Below are positions 1,703 to 14,731 of a stretch of 40,522 nt of DNA, in pieces. Origin of the DNA: a virus; IMG/VR virus record IMGVR_UViG_3300048790_000037, positions 1-40,522 of that record; one strand, 5' to 3'. Both the position numbers and the translations under genes were made by a program. The stretch's first letter is position 1, and each line of letters begins with the position of its first letter. The notes below the pieces were generated by a model. That model was not told the origin of the DNA. It was given only the letters and a program-made list of their open reading frames with translations, and ran no database searches.

Positions 1703-1890
1703 TGGACAAGAAGATACACAAGATAACGAAACTGATGAAGAAAGCCTCAGCGGACATAGCAAAAGGCCAATCGACTAAAGCTAGGAAAGTGCTTAAAGGT
1801 GCTGCTAAAAAGAACGAGGCGCTTAAAGTCGAAGACAGGGATGTGCGAGATCCTTACATAGCTAAATGTGAAAAAGCCGGGGTGAAATGA
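1699..1890 (+). CDS. Hypothetical basic small protein
   Basis: 63-aa Lys-rich ORF. Start is GTG 1699 or ATG 1702, overlapping the upstream TGA. Confidence 0.45.
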   Translation: MMDKKIHKITKLMKKASADIAKGQSTKARKVLKGAAKKNEALKVEDRDVRDPYIAKCEKAGVK

Positions 1891-2135
1891 GTAAAATGCA
1901 CCCAAACGTATGTAGAGCAATCAAATTCGCTCTAAGAAACCGTAAAACTCGCCTGCCCTCGATCAGGCCGTTTAACCAGCAAAACCTCAGAGACGCTATC
2001 TCTGCATTGAACTTAGATAGCTTGATTAGGGATGTGAGACCTTACATTAAAAACATGATCTATGAGCTTATGAAGTGCGAAACACGCATACGGCGGCTTG
2101 AGATGCAGGTGGAACGCTTATTGAGTAAGAAATAA
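1887..2135 (+). CDS. Hypothetical protein
   Basis: 82-aa ORF with an ATGA start/stop overlap with the upstream gene. C-terminal coiled-coil-like RIRRLEMQVERLL. Confidence 0.5.
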   Translation: MSKMHPNVCRAIKFALRNRKTRLPSIRPFNQQNLRDAISALNLDSLIRDVRPYIKNMIYELMKCETRIRRLEMQVERLLSKK

Positions 2136-2431
2136 TGTACCGTGTTCAATTTAAGACCAAGAAGTCTCACACCATCTACCCATACATGATAGATGAGAAC
2201 TCGCAGCTATGCATTAAGAAAGCCTTCGTCAAGTACATCAAGAAGCTAAAAGAGTACCAAATGCCCATTGAGGGGCCCTATTACTACTGTTCTTACGAGT
2301 ACATGCCCCAAGACCCATGGATGTGCTGCAAGTTGCTTAAGTATAAGAAGATTCCCGAAGCAGAAGAGATCGTGAAAGGCATTCTACCAGAGGTAGGTTG
2401 CGTACAAAGGCTTCCCGATGAGCCAGCATAG
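2135..2431 (+). CDS. Hypothetical protein
   Basis: 98-aa ORF with a TAATG overlap with the upstream gene. Confidence 0.5.
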   Translation: MYRVQFKTKKSHTIYPYMIDENSQLCIKKAFVKYIKKLKEYQMPIEGPYYYCSYEYMPQDPWMCCKLLKYKKIPEAEEIVKGILPEVGCVQRLPDEPA

Positions 2432-3236: not shown

Positions 3237-4574
3237 ATGTTTAATCAAGAGATCAACCTAGAACTTCCTGCTAACTATATAGCTAGGCCTTATCAGTCCG
3301 AGTTCTGGGCTAAGATGCGATCCGGCATCAAAAGAGCCGTCCTGGTCTGGCACAGAAGAGCAGGTAAGGAGAAAACCTGTTGGAATTATCTCATCATGCA
3401 GGCATGTATGAGAGTAGGAATATACTACTATTTTTTTCCACATTTCAGCCAGGGACGTAAGATCCTTTGGGACGGCGTAGATAAATTGGGATACCGCCTC
3501 CTAAATCATCTGCCTGAGTCTTTAATGGACGGCAAGCCCAACTCAACAGAGATGAAAATAAGGTTGAAAAATGGAAGTCTTATTCAAATTATTGGTACTA
3601 ACAATATCGACAGTATCGTTGGGACTAATCCAATCGGTTGCGTCTTTACTGAATACTCACTCCAAGATCCCAAGGCATGGGGTTTTATACGGCCAATACT
3701 ACGAGAGAACGGGGGTTGGGCGGTATTTAATTTTACTCCACGGGGGGCTAATCACGGCAAGGAGATATATGATATGTCTCGCCTTAATCCAGATTGGTAT
3801 TGTCAGCTACTTACTGTGGATGATACTCATGTCCTAAGCCGCGAAGACATAAAGCGAGAGCGTAAAGAAGGCATGTCCGAGGATATGATTCAGCAGGAAT
3901 ACTACTGCTCATTCACCCTAGGTATCGAGGGTTCCTACTATGCTAAATACGTTCAAGACGCCAAAGACGAAGAAAGAATCGGGTGGGTTCCCTGGTCTCA
4001 AAGTTCTCGTGTTTATACGGCCTGGGATATAGGATATGGCGATAGCACTGCAATTATTTTCTATCAAGTCATAGGCAATGCGATCCATATCATAGATTAC
4101 TACGAATGCCACGGCGAAGGATTCCCCCACTATGCCCAGGTACTCAAGGATAAAGCGTATATTTATGCGGATCACTACGGACCCCACGACATCGACAGCC
4201 ATGATTTTTCCAGCGGACTCTCACCAAGAGAGGTGGCTCTCTCGCTTGGTATCAAATTCACGATCCTACCAACGCTTAAAGTCAGTGTTGAAGCAGGCAT
4301 TGAGGCTGTGCGTAGTATCTTCCCACGCATTTATATTGATGAAGATAAGTGCCAGCGACTCGTTAAGTGCCTGGAAAACTACCGAAAGGAGTTCGACGAA
4401 AGATTAGAGGTGTACAAGTCTAGGCCGAGGCATGATAAATGGTCTCATGGAGCAGATGCGGCTAGGTATATGGCCATAGCTGTGAAGATCTTCGTAGACC
4501 ACAGACATGCAGGTGTAGACGATCAGACAGCAGACAGATGGTTCAGAGAAGCAATTCCTCTGTTTGAAACTTAA
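3237..4574 (+). CDS. terL: Terminase large subunit
   Basis: 445 aa. Walker A-like HRRAGKEKT, Walker B-like GCVFTEYS and a FTPRG coupling motif. C-terminal RNaseH-like nuclease motifs WDIGYGDSTAI, GPHD and HGADAARY. Confidence 0.92.
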   Translation: MFNQEINLELPANYIARPYQSEFWAKMRSGIKRAVLVWHRRAGKEKTCWNYLIMQACMRVGIYYYFFPHFSQGRKILWDGVDKLGYRLLNHLPESLMDGKPNSTEMKIRLKNGSLIQIIGTNNIDSIVGTNPIGCVFTEYSLQDPKAWGFIRPILRENGGWAVFNFTPRGANHGKEIYDMSRLNPDWYCQLLTVDDTHVLSREDIKRERKEGMSEDMIQQEYYCSFTLGIEGSYYAKYVQDAKDEERIGWVPWSQSSRVYTAWDIGYGDSTAIIFYQVIGNAIHIIDYYECHGEGFPHYAQVLKDKAYIYADHYGPHDIDSHDFSSGLSPREVALSLGIKFTILPTLKVSVEAGIEAVRSIFPRIYIDEDKCQRLVKCLENYRKEFDERLEVYKSRPRHDKWSHGADAARYMAIAVKIFVDHRHAGVDDQTADRWFREAIPLFET

Positions 4575-5106: not shown

Positions 5107-5280
5107 ATTGAACTAGACCAGTCGCCGACACTGGGCTTGAGTCGGTAGGGATTGGAGATTTCCGGTCGTCTGACTTGAGCAAATCGGTCCGCATGGCGCT
5201 CTCTGCGGGGTATAGCACTCGATCCCTCAATCAGTGCCGAGATAAGGCCACACTTCTTGACGTAACATGTGTGGTTGGTT

Positions 5281-5320
5281 GGCTGTTATCCAGCAGTGTA
5301 CAGCGAAAACAGCCCTTTTT
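5281..5320 (+). terminator. Intrinsic terminator/attenuator hairpin 12 nt upstream of the RNA ligase start
   Basis: Perfect 7-bp stem GGCTGTT (5281..5287) / AACAGCC (5308..5314), followed by CTTTTT. Confidence 0.6.
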
Positions 5321-5331
5321 CTGGAGCCTCA

Positions 5332-6009
5332 ATGGAATATCCTAAGATCAATAGCCTGTGGAAACGCGAGGGTTGGTATTTCGACCAAGCTAAGAAGGTA
5401 GATAGACCTTTTCAAGAGAATAGGCAATCATTCATAGCTGGTGACTATGCCGCGCCAGAGTTTGGCAGCATAAAAAAGTGGCACGTAGAAGAGAAGGTTG
5501 ACGGAACGAATATAAGGGTTTTCTTAAGCTGCCGTATGGTAGGCGATAAGTGCACAGCGATATTCGGCGGAAGGACGGGGAATGCGCAGATACCATGCCA
5601 TCTTCTAGACTTCTTGCAGTCACATTTCTCCAAAGCAAAGACGGAAAGCCTCATGGAATTTCCGGGAGAAATGATACTTTTTGGAGAAGGTTACGGGCCG
5701 AGGATACAGGCCGCAGGAGGTAACTACCGCAAAGATCCCGGCTTGATATTGTTCGATGTGAGGATAGGTGACTGGTGGCTTAGGAGAGAAGACGTAAAGG
5801 CTATAGCGGATAAACTAGAGCTGCCTATGGTTCCTGAGATTGGTATTATGGCCGAGGAAGAGATAGTCGAATTCGTAAAGTCGAAACCACTAAGCCAATG
5901 CTCCGTCAACCCTCAGATGATGGAAGGGGTTGTCTGCAGATCAGATCCCCTAATGCTAACACGTAGTAGACAGCCCGTAATGTTTAAGCTCAAATGCAAG
6001 GAATTCTGA
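5332..6009 (+). CDS. ATP-dependent RNA ligase family protein (stand-alone nucleotidyltransferase domain)
   Basis: Covalent nucleotidyltransferase motifs: I EEKVDGTNIRV, then ILFGEGYG, EGVVCR and FKLKCK. GGAG lies 5 nt upstream of ATG 5332, which is internal to ORF 5269..6009. Confidence 0.8.
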   Translation: MEYPKINSLWKREGWYFDQAKKVDRPFQENRQSFIAGDYAAPEFGSIKKWHVEEKVDGTNIRVFLSCRMVGDKCTAIFGGRTGNAQIPCHLLDFLQSHFSKAKTESLMEFPGEMILFGEGYGPRIQAAGGNYRKDPGLILFDVRIGDWWLRREDVKAIADKLELPMVPEIGIMAEEEIVEFVKSKPLSQCSVNPQMMEGVVCRSDPLMLTRSRQPVMFKLKCKEF

Positions 6010-8182: not shown

Positions 8183-10258
8183 ATGTCCTCGCCAATGTCA
8201 GATTATTCGCGGTCTCAAGACTCCACTGAGTTCCTAGAGCACTTCAGGCGCGAAGTAGTTAAGAACGATCCTAGACTAGAGTTTCACCAAGATATCATCA
8301 AAGACTTCGGAGAATCGTATGAGAGAGCGTATCAGTTGTGGAACACTTTTTATGCAGAAGCTTATAAAGATCTTTCTTATTATCTCGGTAATCAATGGTC
8401 GCTTGAAGAGTTGGCTTACCTCAACAATCAGCGCAGATCGTCGTTTACATACAATAAGATCCGTAGACTTATTAACCTGGTCCAAGGATACCAGCGAAAG
8501 AATCGGCTCTGCTCGGTGGTTCGGCCTATTGAAAACGCTTCTGAAGACACGGCGACAATGCTGTCAGATGTGCTTCAATATGTCATGCAAACATCCAATG
8601 GGTATGAACAGATCAGTGACGCGTTTAAAGGCGCTCTAACGACAGGTCTTTCCTTCCTATCACCTTACATGGATTATCGCAACGATCCCGTATCAGGAGA
8701 CATATGCTTCCATAGGGACGATTGGAACGCTGTTATCCTAGATCCCTTTTTCACCAAGAGAGACCTCAGCGACTGCTCGTTTGTAGCTAGAAGGAAGTTC
8801 CTTTCCAGGACGGAAATATGTTCCCTACACCCGGATAAGACCGATCTGATTATGAGCCTGCCTTGGGGTTCCAGAGACGACAAGTTCACTTATATGCCCT
8901 ACGCCCGTCAGTGGGGGATGCAGAAGCTTATGAACTATACCGAGTACTGGAGGACAAAGTGGGTAACCAAAGAAGTTCTCGTGGACATGGAGACAGGAGA
9001 GACGAAGGAATGGTCAGGAGATAAAAAACGCCTTCGTATGTTCAAAGAAGCATATCCCCAGATAGAGTTGATACGCAAACCAGTCAAGCAGGTAGAACTA
9101 GGTGTGATCGTCGAAGGAGAGCTTCTTTATTATGGCAAAGATCCTTTCGGATTGGATGACTACAGTTTCGTGCCTTTTATGGCGGTATGGGAGCCATCCT
9201 ATGACCTATGGAGCTGGAAGATACAGAGCCTAGTCCGGGTTATGAGAGATCCTCAAACGGAGATAAATAAGCGTAGATCTAAAGCCCTAGACGTATTCGA
9301 CTCGCAGCTTAACTCAGGCTGGATAGCTAAGACCAACTCGGTAAGCAATCCTACGTCGTTGTTTAAGTCGGGACAGGGACAGGTTGTATTTTTGAAACCT
9401 GAAGCTCAGATGACGGATGTGCAGCGTCTAGAACCTCCTAGAGTGGACCAGTCAGCATTTCAGCTTATGGGGGAATTCGAAAAAGACCTCTTTGACACAC
9501 TAGGACTAAGCCCAGAGAACGTAGGCCAATCAGAAAACGAGAAGGTCGAGACCGCAGGAGTGCTAGCAAAAGTGCGCCAGGCGGCTGGATGGATACCTAT
9601 GCAGGACGTTATGGATGGCCTCAGAGAGTCTCAGCAACTTCTATGTCGAAAAGTAGTTAAGTTAATCCAACTCAACTACACACCCGAAAAGATACGCCTT
9701 ATTACCAAAAAAGAGCCCACTCCCGAGTTTTTCAGCAAAATGTTCTCACAATACGATATCTCGGTGGAAGAAGGTGTCCTTACAGACACCCAGCAGCAGA
9801 ACCAGTTCATCCAGCTCATGGCGCTCAAGCAAATGGGCGTCAATGTGACGGACGAGGAGATAGTGGCTAATAGCCAACTGCATGATAAAAAACCCATGCA
9901 GGAAAGATTTAAGGCAGAAAGAGAATCAGCTATGCAGCAGCAGCAGAAGGTAGCACAACTCGAAATGCAGAAATTAGAAATGCTTAATAAGTCCGTAGAG
10001 GCAAAAGCCTACTCGGATCAGTCTCTGGGCGCTGAAAGACTGGCTAAGGTAGAGCTAGATAAAGCACTGAACGCCGAGAGAATAAGCAGGGCTCAGGAAG
10101 ATAAGACCGCAGCAGAGCTGAACCTGATTAAAGCCCTCAAGGAGCTTCAGGGAATGGACATGGATTCGCTTGTGCGAGGTGTTGAAGTGCTAAAGGGACT
10201 TGCGGAGAGCCATCAAATAATGAATCCTCCTGAGACCCAGAAACAGGAAGCGGCTTAG
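8183..10258 (+). CDS. Portal protein
   Basis: 691 aa, positioned between terL and scaffold/capsid. Long C-terminal heptad-rich, Q/E/K-rich tail (QQQQKVAQLEMQKLEMLNK...) like podoviral portal barrels. Confidence 0.8.
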   Translation: MSSPMSDYSRSQDSTEFLEHFRREVVKNDPRLEFHQDIIKDFGESYERAYQLWNTFYAEAYKDLSYYLGNQWSLEELAYLNNQRRSSFTYNKIRRLINLVQGYQRKNRLCSVVRPIENASEDTATMLSDVLQYVMQTSNGYEQISDAFKGALTTGLSFLSPYMDYRNDPVSGDICFHRDDWNAVILDPFFTKRDLSDCSFVARRKFLSRTEICSLHPDKTDLIMSLPWGSRDDKFTYMPYARQWGMQKLMNYTEYWRTKWVTKEVLVDMETGETKEWSGDKKRLRMFKEAYPQIELIRKPVKQVELGVIVEGELLYYGKDPFGLDDYSFVPFMAVWEPSYDLWSWKIQSLVRVMRDPQTEINKRRSKALDVFDSQLNSGWIAKTNSVSNPTSLFKSGQGQVVFLKPEAQMTDVQRLEPPRVDQSAFQLMGEFEKDLFDTLGLSPENVGQSENEKVETAGVLAKVRQAAGWIPMQDVMDGLRESQQLLCRKVVKLIQLNYTPEKIRLITKKEPTPEFFSKMFSQYDISVEEGVLTDTQQQNQFIQLMALKQMGVNVTDEEIVANSQLHDKKPMQERFKAERESAMQQQQKVAQLEMQKLEMLNKSVEAKAYSDQSLGAERLAKVELDKALNAERISRAQEDKTAAELNLIKALKELQGMDMDSLVRGVEVLKGLAESHQIMNPPETQKQEAA

Positions 10259-12637: not shown

Positions 12638-12804
12638 ATGGCAATTACAGGCTTAACACAATTGCCACCGGAAGTAAGAACCTATTTCGATAGACTTCTA
12701 CTTACTTTGGCTAGACCGTATTTCTTCTACGACATGTTCGCTCAAAAGCGACAGATCCCGTTGAATTCCGGCGATCAAATGGTGTTTCGTCGCTATGGCA
12801 CGCT
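12638..12804 (+). CDS. Major capsid protein, exon 1 of 3
   Basis: MAITGLTQLPPEVRTYFDRLLLTLARPYFFYDMFAQKRQIPLNSGDQMVFRRYGTL resembles the N-terminus of N4-gp56/HK97-fold capsid proteins. The exon ends in U, paired to the internal guide at 12815..12820. Confidence 0.8.
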
Positions 12805-13195
12805 AGACACAGTTGGCGTGGGTAAATCTTCTCTGATTGACTTGGAACTCCTAGAAGCTGCATAGCAGGAAGGACAACAAGGGGCAAGCTATGAGTTTGA
12901 GCAAGAAAGATACGATGAAAAAACATGATGTTAAGGATTCATCTATGGGGAATTTTCGTGTAAAACTTGGTCAAAAATATGGGCAGCCTGAACGTAGCAA
13001 GCGAGAAGACATTAATTGGTATGGTATGAAAGCTATTATAGATTCCGAAGGAATTTGTCATTTCGAAAATGGAATCTCTAAAGATTTAAATCAACCAATT
13101 GATGATGCGGTGCTCTGAACTCTATGGAGACATAGAGAGACTAGCTGAGAAGACTAGTCCGCCTGGAATAATCTAGGTCCACAAGTAACAGATCG
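12805..13195 (+). mobile_element. Group I intron 1 in the capsid gene
   Basis: P1 pairs CACGCU with GGCGUG, with a U-G wobble at the splice site. The terminal G is at 13195. The 3' core is homologous to intron 2. Removal restores the reading frame. Confidence 0.75.
12891..13118 (+). CDS. Intron 1-encoded 75-aa ORF of unknown function
   Basis: AAGGGG SD. The ORF ends at the same TCTGAACTCTATGG position as the intron 2 endonuclease ORF. No LAGLIDADG, GIY-YIG or HNH motif is visible. Confidence 0.4.
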   Translation: MSLSKKDTMKKHDVKDSSMGNFRVKLGQKYGQPERSKREDINWYGMKAIIDSEGICHFENGISKDLNQPIDDAVL

Positions 13196-13289
13196 AACTG
13201 CCGCGACGGTACCACTAACAGATGGACAAACTCCTCCGGGAGACCAACTATCTGTAACTGACTTTAAAGCACAGATACAATGGTACGGT
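13196..13289 (+). CDS. Major capsid protein, exon 2 of 3
   Basis: Encodes (L)TAATVPLTDGQTPPGDQLSVTDFKAQIQWYG. This is the expected L.EG.TP.G...s.t...a....YG segment of this capsid family. Confidence 0.8.
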
Positions 13290-14053
13290 AAAGAACAGGA
13301 AGACGAACTGCTTTTAGCAGCCTAACTGCCGTATTAAAATCATGAGTGATTACATGGAAAATCTAAACATAAATTCTCCTTCGTGTTATTGTGTTGTGGC
13401 GGATGTTTCGTCACAACGATCAGTAATGGTAACAAAGGACTTTTTATGCAGGATAACCAGAGGCAAGCGCTTCGCATTTCATATATAGCCGGAATTCTCG
13501 ATGGGGAAGGATCATTTTGTTTTATAAAGCAGAACAAACAGGGACAACACAAAAAACATGGGAGAGTTTCTCCTGTGTATTATGGTCTTGTCCGGATAGG
13601 TTTGGTAAACAGAGAAGCTTTAGAATTTATAAATGATACTTTTCCGGGATCTGTTATAAAATGCGAAGGCGTTCGAAGAGACAGACCGACCTACCAGGTG
13701 ATGTATAGATGGGAAATGAGAAAAAGACATCTTTTGATAGAGATATTGAAAAAACTCATCCCCTATCTCATAGTGAAAAAACCACAGGCAGAATTGCTGC
13801 TCGAAACATTGAGCACTTGGATTATGCCTTTCAATCGCAAAATAGGTATATGTCCTCACGAAATACAACGCAGAGACCTTGCGTGGGAAGAAATGCGCAA
13901 GCTTAATGCAGTTGGAGCAGCCGCAACGACTAAGTCTCATGACAACCGAGAGGTTGAAGCGATAGTCTGAACTCTATGGAAACATAGAGAGGGAGATCCG
14001 AAGAGGTTTCCCCGCCTAAATTTAAAATATTTAGGTCACAAAGTAACAGATAG
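13290..14053 (+). mobile_element. Group I intron 2 in the capsid gene, carrying a LAGLIDADG endonuclease ORF
   Basis: P1 pairs UACGGU (13284..13289) with GCCGUA (13328..13333), with a U-G wobble. The terminal G is at 14053. The core is homologous to intron 1. Confidence 0.8.
13446..13970 (+). CDS. LAGLIDADG homing endonuclease (single-motif type)
   Basis: The ISYIAGILDGEGSFCF motif lies near the N-terminus. AAAGGA SD. 174 aa, located inside intron 2. Confidence 0.85.
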   Translation: MQDNQRQALRISYIAGILDGEGSFCFIKQNKQGQHKKHGRVSPVYYGLVRIGLVNREALEFINDTFPGSVIKCEGVRRDRPTYQVMYRWEMRKRHLLIEILKKLIPYLIVKKPQAELLLETLSTWIMPFNRKIGICPHEIQRRDLAWEEMRKLNAVGAAATTKSHDNREVEAIV

Positions 14054-14731
14054 AGTTTCGTCACAGTGACGGATCAAGTACAGTATGTGGTTCAAGACCG
14101 AGTCCTCAATGAGGCAACAAAAGTCTTGAGTTTACAGCTTGGTTTATCGATAGACACACTCTGTAGAGACATGATGGTGTCTACAGCGTCAACCATACTT
14201 TGCAGCAATGGTCTTAACGGCAATACGCCTACCGAGCTCACTGACGCAGACATCCAGACAGCAGTCATTGCACTTAGACAGGGCAACGCCCGTCTAATGA
14301 CCAATCCTCTGCCTGGAGAGAACAAGTTCGCTACAGCACCCGTACGTATGTCTTACTGGGGCTTCATGAGTGTGGATCTACAGCAGGATTTGGAGAACGT
14401 AAGTTCGTTTATCAGCTCTGCTAACTACCCCAACCCACTGAATGCTTTGGAAGCGGAATGGGGGTCTACACGAAACGTTCGTTGGCTAATGAGCACGAAC
14501 GGCTACAGCAATGGGGCCTCGCCCAACGTGTACTCTAACATGATCTTAGGAAGCGAGTCTTACGGTGTTGTAAGGCTGGGTGCAAAAGAAGCCGAATTCA
14601 TCGTGAAGCCTCTAGGCGCATCCGGTACGGCTGACCCTCTCAATCAACGCGGCACAGTTGGATATAAGTATCCGTTTACTACACGGATCTTAAATGACAA
14701 CTGGATCACTCGCTTAACATGCACATTGTAG
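14054..14731 (+). CDS. Major capsid protein, exon 3 of 3
   Basis: SFVTVTDQVQYVVQDRVLNEATKVLSLQLGLSIDTLCRDMM...GTVGYKYPFTTRIL matches the body of the capsid family. The frame is open from 14054. Confidence 0.85.
   Translation, partial: SFVTVTDQVQYVVQDRVLNEATKVLSLQLGLSIDTLCRDMMVSTASTILCSNGLNGNTPTELTDADIQTAVIALRQGNARLMTNPLPGENKFATAPVRMSYWGFMSVDLQQDLENVSSFISSANYPNPLNALEAEWGSTRNVRWLMSTNGYSNGASPNVYSNMILGSESYGVVRLGAKEAEFIVKPLGASGTADPLNQRGTVGYKYPFTTRILNDNWITRLTCTL

Follow-up and report, generated by a model that had tools for sequence, protein, structure and literature searches.

Here we report that the major capsid gene on a 40,522-nt virus sequence (IMG/VR record IMGVR_UViG_3300048790_000037, positions 1 to 40,522, the whole of which we call the window) is very probably interrupted by two functional group I introns. 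The window most likely covers all or almost all of the genome of a tailed phage, about 40 kb in size and not in culture, and the gene is of the N4-gp56 type. A first-pass annotation, made from the letters alone, had proposed two tandem, mutually homologous group I introns at this place. That proposal is supported by the colinearity of the exons with uninterrupted homologues, by two matches to a family-specific covariance model, by covariation within the intron family, and by covariation of the P1 and P10 guide pairings in orthologous introns.

Capsid exons and the spliced product

The capsid frame was said to break after 55 codons, to pass through a 94-nt island and to resume at 14054, giving 312 codons in all, and translation bears out every coordinate. 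The three exons join into 939 nt, that is, 312 codons and a stop:

12638..12804, + strand: capsid exon 1, 167 nt; codons 1-55 and 2 nt of codon 56, ending in U (translation; gap-free alignment to intronless homologues)
13196..13289, + strand: capsid exon 2, 94 nt; third base of codon 56 and codons 57-87, ending in U (gap-free alignment to intronless homologues)
14054..14731, + strand: capsid exon 3; codons 88-312 and stop (gap-free alignment to intronless homologues)

Exon 1 closes with ...GGCACGCT (in nucleotides, ...ACGCU), exon 2 translated in phase reads L followed by TAATVPLTDGQTPPGDQLSVTDFKAQIQWYG, and exon 3 opens with SFVTVTDQ at 14054, so that the conceptual junction peptides are YGTLTAATVPL (exon 1/2) and QWYGSFVTVTDQ (exon 2/3).

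A search of 5.8 billion proteins with the spliced 312-aa product recovered more than 100 homologues of 310-318 aa, all uninterrupted, at 74-90% identity and 100% coverage, several of them named "N4-gp56 family major capsid protein" by their sources. Their alignment is gap-free at both junctions (...FRRYGTL/TAATVPL... and ...QWYG/SFVT...). The intronless capsid gene of contig L107, which includes the sequence CAATGGTATGGATCTTTCGTGACC, is also 939 nt long and aligns without gaps over its full length at 70% nt identity; it stands in a portal-scaffold-capsid context that matches the window, where a P22-like portal and a scaffold-sized gene likewise precede the capsid gene. A comparison with known capsid families had been suggested, and Pfam places the spliced product in Phage_capsid_4 (PF25209; 31 bits against a cut-off of 27), its homology to the N4-gp56 / Phage_capsid_4 major capsid family extending over the full length. 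We regard the exon structure as real because the spliced frame is colinear and gap-free with the uninterrupted homologues and the L107 gene, and because of this Pfam assignment. Among cultured phages no capsid is more than 32% identical to that of the window, and blastn of the region against deposited phage genomes gave a sole match, a 58-nt stretch around P9 in Desulfovibrio phage 7757.

Homology alone leaves an ambiguity of 1 nt at each splice junction, an A following the exon end and the intron end alike. It was settled as the first-pass annotation had it, because under the group I rule the exon ends in U and the intron in G. G+C content is about 40% in both introns but 48% in the capsid exons and 47% over the window as a whole, which is consistent with foreign, AU-rich mobile RNA elements.

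Intron family, fold and reading frames

The two window introns have in common a 25-nt element, CTGAACTCTATGGARACATAGAGAG, at 13115-13139 and 13967-13991, which spans J7/9 and P9 (P, J and L denoting paired, joining and loop segments) and has 105 exact occurrences in IMG/VR. The flanks of these copies share the architecture ...GAACGACUAAG-P3'-P8-GAWGCGAUAGU-CUGAAC-P9-P9.1-P9.2-...AAGUAACAGnnnG, and many copies are compact (190-240 nt) and without an open reading frame (ORF). Twenty-five compact, ORF-less copies from other contigs were aligned, yielding an RNAalifold consensus with P3 of 7 bp, P4 of 4, P5 of 3, P6/P6a of 4+2 and P8 of 4, followed in the 3' part by P9.0 of 4 bp, P9 of 7, P9.1 of 7 and P9.2 of 3; the P7 pseudoknot was added by hand before covariation was tested. 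With P7 included, standard pairs fill 97.9% of cells, and changes on both sides are seen in 31 of the 48 pairs, three of the five P7 pairs among them. None of 500 shuffles reached the real level, and slid partners paired at 37-49%. The fold predicted from these sequences is a group I topology with the P3/P7 pseudoknot. The family has P9.0, P9, P9.1 and P9.2 and lacks P2 and P7.1/P7.2, unlike the introns of Staphylococcus phage Twort, which belong to subgroup IA2 and carry P7.1/P7.2.

A covariance model, R1, was built from the 25 foreign compact sequences and contains no window sequence. It matches the window exactly twice, at 12819-13195 (130.5 bits, E 8e-36) and 13827-14053 (107.2 bits, E 3e-29), and both matches terminate on the proposed intron-terminal G (13195 and 14053). 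The conserved group I core, comprising P4-P6, P3-P8 and the P3/P7 pseudoknot with its covariation, is found in both window introns, as is a terminal G accompanied by P9.0 (UG/CA) and P10. All helices are complementary in both introns, and unconstrained minimum free energy (MFE) folding recovers them; the P1-P9 folding of the two blocks that had been suggested finds its helices in each.

Several details of the first-pass annotation hold at this level. Both blocks end alike, in AAGTAACAGATCG and AAGTAACAGATAG, with a terminal G, and a sequence check confirms that the hairpins after the shared element differ by compensatory changes between the two introns. The stretch TAAA(A)TC...GATTRAC is indeed conserved, although it corresponds to J1/3, the P3 5' strand and J3/4 and not to a hairpin or stem-loop.

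Intron 1 is laid out as follows:

12805..13195, + strand: intron 1, 391 nt; group I, GGUGCU/P7 "AGCA:UGCU" sub-lineage, without P2, ending in G13195 (R1 match, MFE fold, orthologues)
12810..12820, + strand: guide; P10 CAGUU 12810-12814 with 3' exon AACUG 13196-13200, P1 GGCGUG 12815-12820 with CACGCU 12799-12804
12827..13009, + strand: P3 and P4-P6 domain (R1 alignment, helix check, MFE fold)
12827-12833 / 13003-13009, + strand: P3, UCUUCUC / GAGAAGA
12841-44 / 12878-81, + strand: P4
12849-52 / 12871-74, + strand: P5
12858-61 / 12865-68, + strand: P5a
12882-85 / 12986-89, + strand: P6
12888-89 / 12983-84, + strand: P6a
12890-12982, + strand: rod-like L6 extension
G12994 and A12996-A12999, + strand: P7 5' strand
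13010..13104, + strand: P8 arm; 10-bp basal helix CAUUAAUUGG 13010-13019 / CCAAUUGAUG 13095-13104, with a structured 75-nt loop
13105..13195, + strand: 3' domain; J8/7 GAUGCGG, P7 3' strand 13111-13115, terminal G 13195
13116-17 / 13189-90, + strand: P9.0, UG / CA
13120-26 / 13131-37, + strand: P9
13139-44 / 13154-59, + strand: P9.1
13161-66 / 13173-78, + strand: P9.2

The pairing of CACGCU with GGCGUG in P1, with its terminal U·G at the splice site, is exactly as first described. When the entire intron and its flanks were folded without constraints, the MFE structure contained P1, P3, P4, P5, P5a, P6, P8, P9, P9.1 and P9.2 in full, and the segment P6'-J6/7-P7 reads GCAGCCUGAACGUAGCAA at 12983-13000, with A12996-A12999 pairing to U13111-U13114 and G12994 to C13115 in P7. 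Intron 1 is enlarged by an insertion of 93 nt in L6 and a second, separate one of 75 nt in L8, both of which fold as stable rods (z = -3.9 for L6, z = -3.95 for the P8 arm); the basal helix of the P8 arm forms 10 of its 10 pairs in the MFE fold. A manual placement of P7/P3' at 12909-12921, with the ORF in P8, was overturned by R1, which puts P6'-P7-P3' at 12983-13009, and a local hairpin AUCAA/UUGAU taken for P8 was replaced on folding by the 10-bp long-range helix.

Intron 2 has the following parts:

13290..14053, + strand: intron 2, 764 nt; group I, GAUAGU/P7 "GACUA:UAGUC" sub-lineage, with a LAGLIDADG gene, ending in G14053 (R1 match, sub-threshold Rfam match, orthologues)
13324..13333, + strand: guide; P10 AACU 13324-27 with 3' exon AGUU 14054-57, P1 GCCGUA 13328-33 with UACGGU 13284-89
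13340..13468, + strand: 5' core; P3 5' strand UCAUGAG 13340-46, J3/4 UGAUUAC, L5 hairpin 13365-13449
13355-57 / 13457-59, + strand: P4, UGG / CCA (3 bp)
13362-64 / 13450-52, + strand: P5
13462-64, + strand: P6 5' strand, GGC
13467-68, + strand: P6a 5' strand, GC
13917..14053, + strand: 3' core; P6a'/P6' 13917-22, P3' CUCAUGA 13936-42, terminal G 14053
13928-32 / 13963-67, + strand: P7, GACUA / UAGUC
13943-47 / 13952-56, + strand: P8, CAACC / GGUUG
13968-69 / 14047-48, + strand: P9.0, UG / CA
13972-78 / 13983-89, + strand: P9
13991-98 / 14005-12, + strand: P9.1
14014-21 / 14029-36, + strand: P9.2

Here too the proposed P1 (UACGGU/GCCGUA, terminal U·G at the splice site) is matched to the letter, and in both introns the P10 and P1 guides are contiguous, with a P10 of 5 bp in the first and of 4 bp in the second. 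L1 of intron 2 is 38 nt long and contains the hairpin CUGC 13308-11 / GCAG 13317-20; the orthologous intron of contig L185 likewise has a large L1 with a compensating hairpin. The L5 extension is an 85-nt, hyper-stable hairpin (z = -5.1). The 5' half of this intron was assigned by orthologue alignment and ORF-deleted folding instead of R1, and with the ORF swapped for a GAAA loop, MFE folding again recovered its helices. An alternative P4 (CAUG/UAUG at 13444-47) was dropped, as it is not conserved in the orthologue of contig L183.

Each intron holds an ORF:

13446..13970, + strand: intron 2 ORF, 174 aa; predicted single-motif LAGLIDADG homing endonuclease, motif YIAGILDGEGSF (PDB, PHROG, orthologue profile)
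12891..13118, + strand: intron 1 ORF, 75 aa; through L6, P6', P7, P3' and the P8 arm (open frame only)

These ORFs had been described as sitting at the same position, which is true insofar as the same UGA in J7/9 ends both; otherwise the correspondence is loose, and only intron 2 has a credible gene. Its ORF starts in the P5 3' strand, fills L6 and stops at the UGA of UCUGAAC, with its last 17 or so codons overlapping P6', P7, P3', P8 and P7'. The ATG is preceded at 6 nt (5 intervening bases) by a Shine-Dalgarno-like AAGGA, and both this motif and the start codon are conserved in orthologues. In the predicted fold the two are placed within the base of the L5 extension hairpin, and on this model the folded ribozyme may limit translation of the ORF.

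By homology and by its motif, the predicted product of the intron 2 ORF is a LAGLIDADG homing endonuclease of the I-MsoI/I-CreI kind. As a single sequence it matched I-MsoI in PDB (E 1.9e-9) and PHROG 5046 (E 2e-14), and a five-orthologue profile matched native I-MsoI best (2.9e-8), then I-CvuI and I-CreI, over residues 6-128. Intact orthologues in L183 and L185 are 59-66% identical in amino acids; of the five orthologues, four have a PF00961 match at E<0.1, and the one from contig L033 clears the cut-off (25.1 versus 23.1 bits). With I-MsoI, I-CvuI and I-CreI, which are homodimeric and come from algal rRNA group I introns, the window protein shares a single LAGLIDADG motif, the catalytic Asp (ILDGEGSF), a length of about 170 aa and a gene encoded within a group I intron, in addition to the profile match. 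It differs from them in its low identity, in not passing PF00961, in its presumed target (a phage capsid gene as opposed to rDNA), and in having its C-terminal 17 or so codons encoded by the ribozyme core.

The 75-aa ORF of intron 1 is unlikely to be a functional gene. Searches of Pfam and PHROG gave no match to it, and the only database sequence it finds is its own. It could alternatively encode a real small protein, the remnant of a DNA-binding or maturase-like module or a degenerate endonuclease, which we consider improbable. A related intron in L033 contains an 89-aa ORF whose C-terminal 35 or so codons are partly conserved with it (W(Y/F)G(M/V)KA...G(I/L)C(H/Y)FE(N/D)G...QPIDDAVL) at only about 80% nt identity, several of the differences being synonymous, while the distal fold of the P8 arm differs between the two introns; an AAGGGG also precedes the ATG of the intron 1 ORF. 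Against these features, the N-terminal halves of the two ORFs are unrelated, one third of the intron 1 ORF is ribozyme core read in frame, both insertions through which it runs fold as stable rods, and a hand count of codon differences (about 7 synonymous to 14 non-synonymous) is not clearly purifying.

Insertion sites among related phages

Relatives of the spliced capsid were found at 80 loci, 61 uninterrupted and 19 interrupted, and insertion sites were mapped on them by tblastn and R1:

Around residue 56: site A, that of intron 1; L169, L172, L176, L179, L182, probably L170/L173
Around residue 87: site B, that of intron 2; L183, L185/L186
Around residues 93-96: site C; L177-L182
Around residue 104: other site; L185/L186
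Around residue 177: other site; L031
Around residues 227 and 256: other sites; L184
Around residues 290-299: other sites; L174/L175, L141

Two introns within one capsid gene are also present in L179 and L182 (A and C), in L184, and in L185/186 (B and the residue-104 site). The claim that introns are rare in phage capsid genes therefore fails for this lineage, since 19 of 80 related loci are interrupted and several have two introns. In L185 (1520-2562) and L186, the site-B LAGLIDADG intron is followed by an inferred micro-exon of about 48 nt (residues 88-103) and a second family intron between R and VLNEA, a spacing tighter than the 94 nt of the window. In L033 (5475-7476), a distant capsid homologue (36-44% identity) has apparently three family introns in a row, one of them intron 1-like with an 89-aa ORF containing CxxC...CxC, and one intron 2-like with a 169-aa LAGLIDADG ORF, the one passing PF00961.

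Site-A introns of six other contigs follow ...ACGCU with A, have a GGCGUG-type guide and end in ...CAGnnnG before AAC. The P1 of L176 is compensated (GACGCU/GGCGUC), and P10 at site A covaries with the synonymous third base of a Thr codon, AGUU:AACU in the window versus UGUU:AACA in L176. Site-B orthologues share the 5' segment of intron 2, its ORF (66-71% nt identity) and its 3' segment, and all site-A and site-B orthologues end in G. Within the site-A intron of L172 (1787-2499), a 170-aa LAGLIDADG ORF lies at 1841-2353 (minus), on the strand opposite to the capsid gene; window intron 1 has none, a difference that points to an endonuclease gained or lost at a single insertion site.

The two window introns differ by two compensatory pairs in P7 and by several in P3, and bear the marks of different sub-lineages (P7 AGCA:UGCU versus GACUA:UAGUC; P9.1 loops CUGAGAAGA versus CCGAAGAGG, intron 1 versus intron 2). 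Judged from their sequences, they are independent acquisitions, because their P7 and P9.1 variants differ and each is found singly elsewhere. Tandem duplication of one intron is ruled out on the same grounds, the introns belonging to different sub-lineages and each occurring singly in other phages.

Beyond the close relatives, 68 of 106 exact-P9 sites in IMG/VR have, within the 400 nt that follow, an exon with homology to this capsid family, and from its sequence contexts the family is predominantly one of capsid genes. The phages that host it are very diverse, because the capsid homologues at these sites are only 25-56% identical. Family copies occupy at least 10 recurrent codon positions, with clusters near residues 104, 140 and 181 (hot spots) and also 210 and 250, and several phages have two capsid introns parted by micro-exons of about 48-115 nt.

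Proposed splicing, alternatives and known systems

Some of our observations weigh against two working introns and an intron-encoded endonuclease. At its gathering score Rfam gave no match in the window or in 20 related loci, so the search with Intron_gpI (RF00028) that had been suggested as a check falls short for both blocks: in permissive mode the 3' core of intron 2 scored 30.7 bits (E 1.6e-5) where 50 are required, and no match came from intron 1. Pfam, with PF00961 and PF14528 as the families of interest, returned no match at E<=1 for the window LAGLIDADG protein. Applied to the 5' half of intron 2 alone, R1 found noise only, a 450-nt ORF separating the halves of this intron; its P4 has just 3 bp, the P4/P5 register is its least certain part, and its 4-bp P10 is not kept in L183. 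P9 is invariant by construction, an exact P9 match having been the search key, and adds no covariation. Finally, splicing of both introns is something we infer from their anatomy.

The Rfam failure is a limit of model sensitivity and no refutation; we read it in this way because we judge the family-specific model and the covariation to be decisive and because the compact relatives fail as well, scoring a sub-threshold 28-40 bits (best 40.3 versus 50), down to E 8.7e-7. In intron 2 and the compact relatives RF00028 aligns R (...AACGACUAAG...), P8, S (...GAAGCGAUAGUC...) and P9, with significant E-values.

We propose that the late transcript would fold into two ribozymes. In each, P1 would dock the 5' splice site, with the exon U on a guide G, and exogenous guanosine bound in P7 would attack; the terminal G, positioned by P9.0 and P10, would then take the guanosine's pocket and the exons would be ligated. 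An mRNA for the 312-aa capsid would require both splicing reactions. Going by the base pairing, the P10 guide of intron 1 should disfavor skipping of exon 2, because it pairs with exon 2 (AACUG) but not with exon 3 (AGUUU); a transcript lacking exon 2 would in any event be out of frame, 167 nt not being divisible by 3. The presumed target of the intron 2 endonuclease is the junction of exons 2 and 3 in intron-less capsid alleles of relatives infecting the same cell; cleavage there would lead to homing, and presence/absence at site B (occupied in L183 and L185/186, with 61 of 80 loci uninterrupted) is consistent with this. Intron 1 has no credible endonuclease and instead has extended P6 and P8 arms.

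The ribozymes might instead be decayed relics, at least one of which no longer splices, in a defective genome or a capsid pseudogene. The absence of an endonuclease from intron 1, its 93-nt and 75-nt insertions in L6 and L8, and the weak P4 of intron 2 could be viewed in that light. We nevertheless consider decay very unlikely: core helices, guides, U·G pairs and terminal Gs are all intact in both introns, the capsid exons are full length and under clear purifying selection, orthologous introns persist at the same sites in several independent metagenomes, and this is the sole capsid gene of a genome of about 40 kb that otherwise looks complete.

Even less probable, in our estimation, is a capsid gene truly split by selfish endonuclease cassettes, with the capsid assembled from separately translated fragments. 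Phage genes split by free-standing homing endonuclease genes are reportedly already known; PMC10448857 covers part of the background. Exon 2, though, consists of 31 codons, begins mid-codon and has neither a start codon nor a ribosome site. Both inserts are members of a covarying ribozyme family with ends that coincide with exon boundaries, and intron 1 has no endonuclease to act as such a cassette. That the insertions are chimeric joins present in no real genome is scarcely credible, even for a metagenomic contig, given that the insert ends fall at codon-precise, frame-restoring sites, the guides can pair with the adjoining exons of the contig itself and the same capsid sites are occupied in unrelated samples. 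Inteins are excluded, as the inserts are out of frame and contain in-frame stops, and group II introns are excluded by structure, with no reverse transcriptase present.

Two probably functional group I introns in one capsid gene join features that are each already documented, namely phage introns in capsid genes and several introns in one phage gene. In mycobacteriophage LittleE (Cluster J; Pope et al. 2013, PMC3706429), a capsid group I intron with a LAGLIDADG-like ORF was proven to splice by reverse transcription PCR, accompanied by N-terminal sequencing; a capsid intron of lactococcal phage Tuc2009 is known to us as cited in that paper. Like LittleE, the window comes from a tailed phage and has its introns in the gene for the major capsid subunit, with exons ending in U and introns in G, carries a LAGLIDADG-like homing endonuclease, and was recognized against intron-less relatives. 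LittleE has one intron, with the endonuclease on the opposite strand, whereas the window has two introns 94 nt apart and a sense-strand endonuclease in L6; splicing is proven in the former, while the window introns are known from sequence. Phage lineage and capsid family also differ, and the two were compared by their described features.

Three group I introns interrupt orf142 of Staphylococcus phage Twort (Landthaler & Shub 1999, PMC22036, as cited in PMC6669764), and in the gut "Jug" jumbo phages terL is divided into 2-3 pieces and genomes average about 18 introns (PMC12880540). These resemble the window in having several group I introns per gene, a need for multiple splicing and introns that are related within a genome; the host genes are orf142 and terL, respectively, as opposed to the major capsid gene.

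Current concepts of group I introns are unchanged by these findings. They do bear on annotation, given that gene callers fragment this capsid gene and that Rfam Intron_gpI overlooks the whole intron family at its curated threshold; for these reasons capsid genes of this abundant uncultivated phage group will be mis-annotated or will enter phylogenies truncated. Such genes can be repaired with the family model and the splice rule of an exon ending in U, an intron ending in GUAACAG, N3-6 and G, and then the next exon. Two obligatory splicing events would also imply very efficient ribozymes, because every virion requires hundreds of capsid subunits. Many capsid sites are occupied by an intron in some phages and empty in others, the introns having or lacking a LAGLIDADG gene, and these phages thus offer a natural setting in which to study homing, the loss of endonucleases and possible competition between phages. 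We offer only tentatively the idea that the window exemplifies a lineage of mobile group I introns specialized for capsid genes, and that obligatory multiple ribozyme splicing of the top-expressed late gene is normal in a whole uncultivated phage clade, which tolerates it and may even exploit it. Exploitation could serve late-gene timing or endonuclease interference with co-infecting relatives, the latter reportedly shown for PhiPA3.

Other observations concern neighboring elements and more distant sequences. In Desulfovibrio phage 7757 (contig L106; OR395405.1, 78812-83869), an unannotated family member was matched by R1 at 2382-2584 (144.5 bits). It lies at the end of a 743-aa nrdD-like ORF, which looks like an anaerobic ribonucleotide reductase fragment, possibly with an intein-like insert, and is followed by a 217-aa ORF of HNH-like appearance. 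In the human-faecal sequences MT836218.1 (7307-8434) and MT837590.1 (4718-5845), a capsid homologue (30% identity) is in two pieces over 1128 nt versus about 900, and may be another interrupted gene. The window itself encodes, at 5269-6009 (+), a 246-aa ORF matching Pfam RNA_ligase (PF09414, E 2.3e-15), situated between a terminase-sized ORF (3237-4574) and the P22-like portal (8183-10258).

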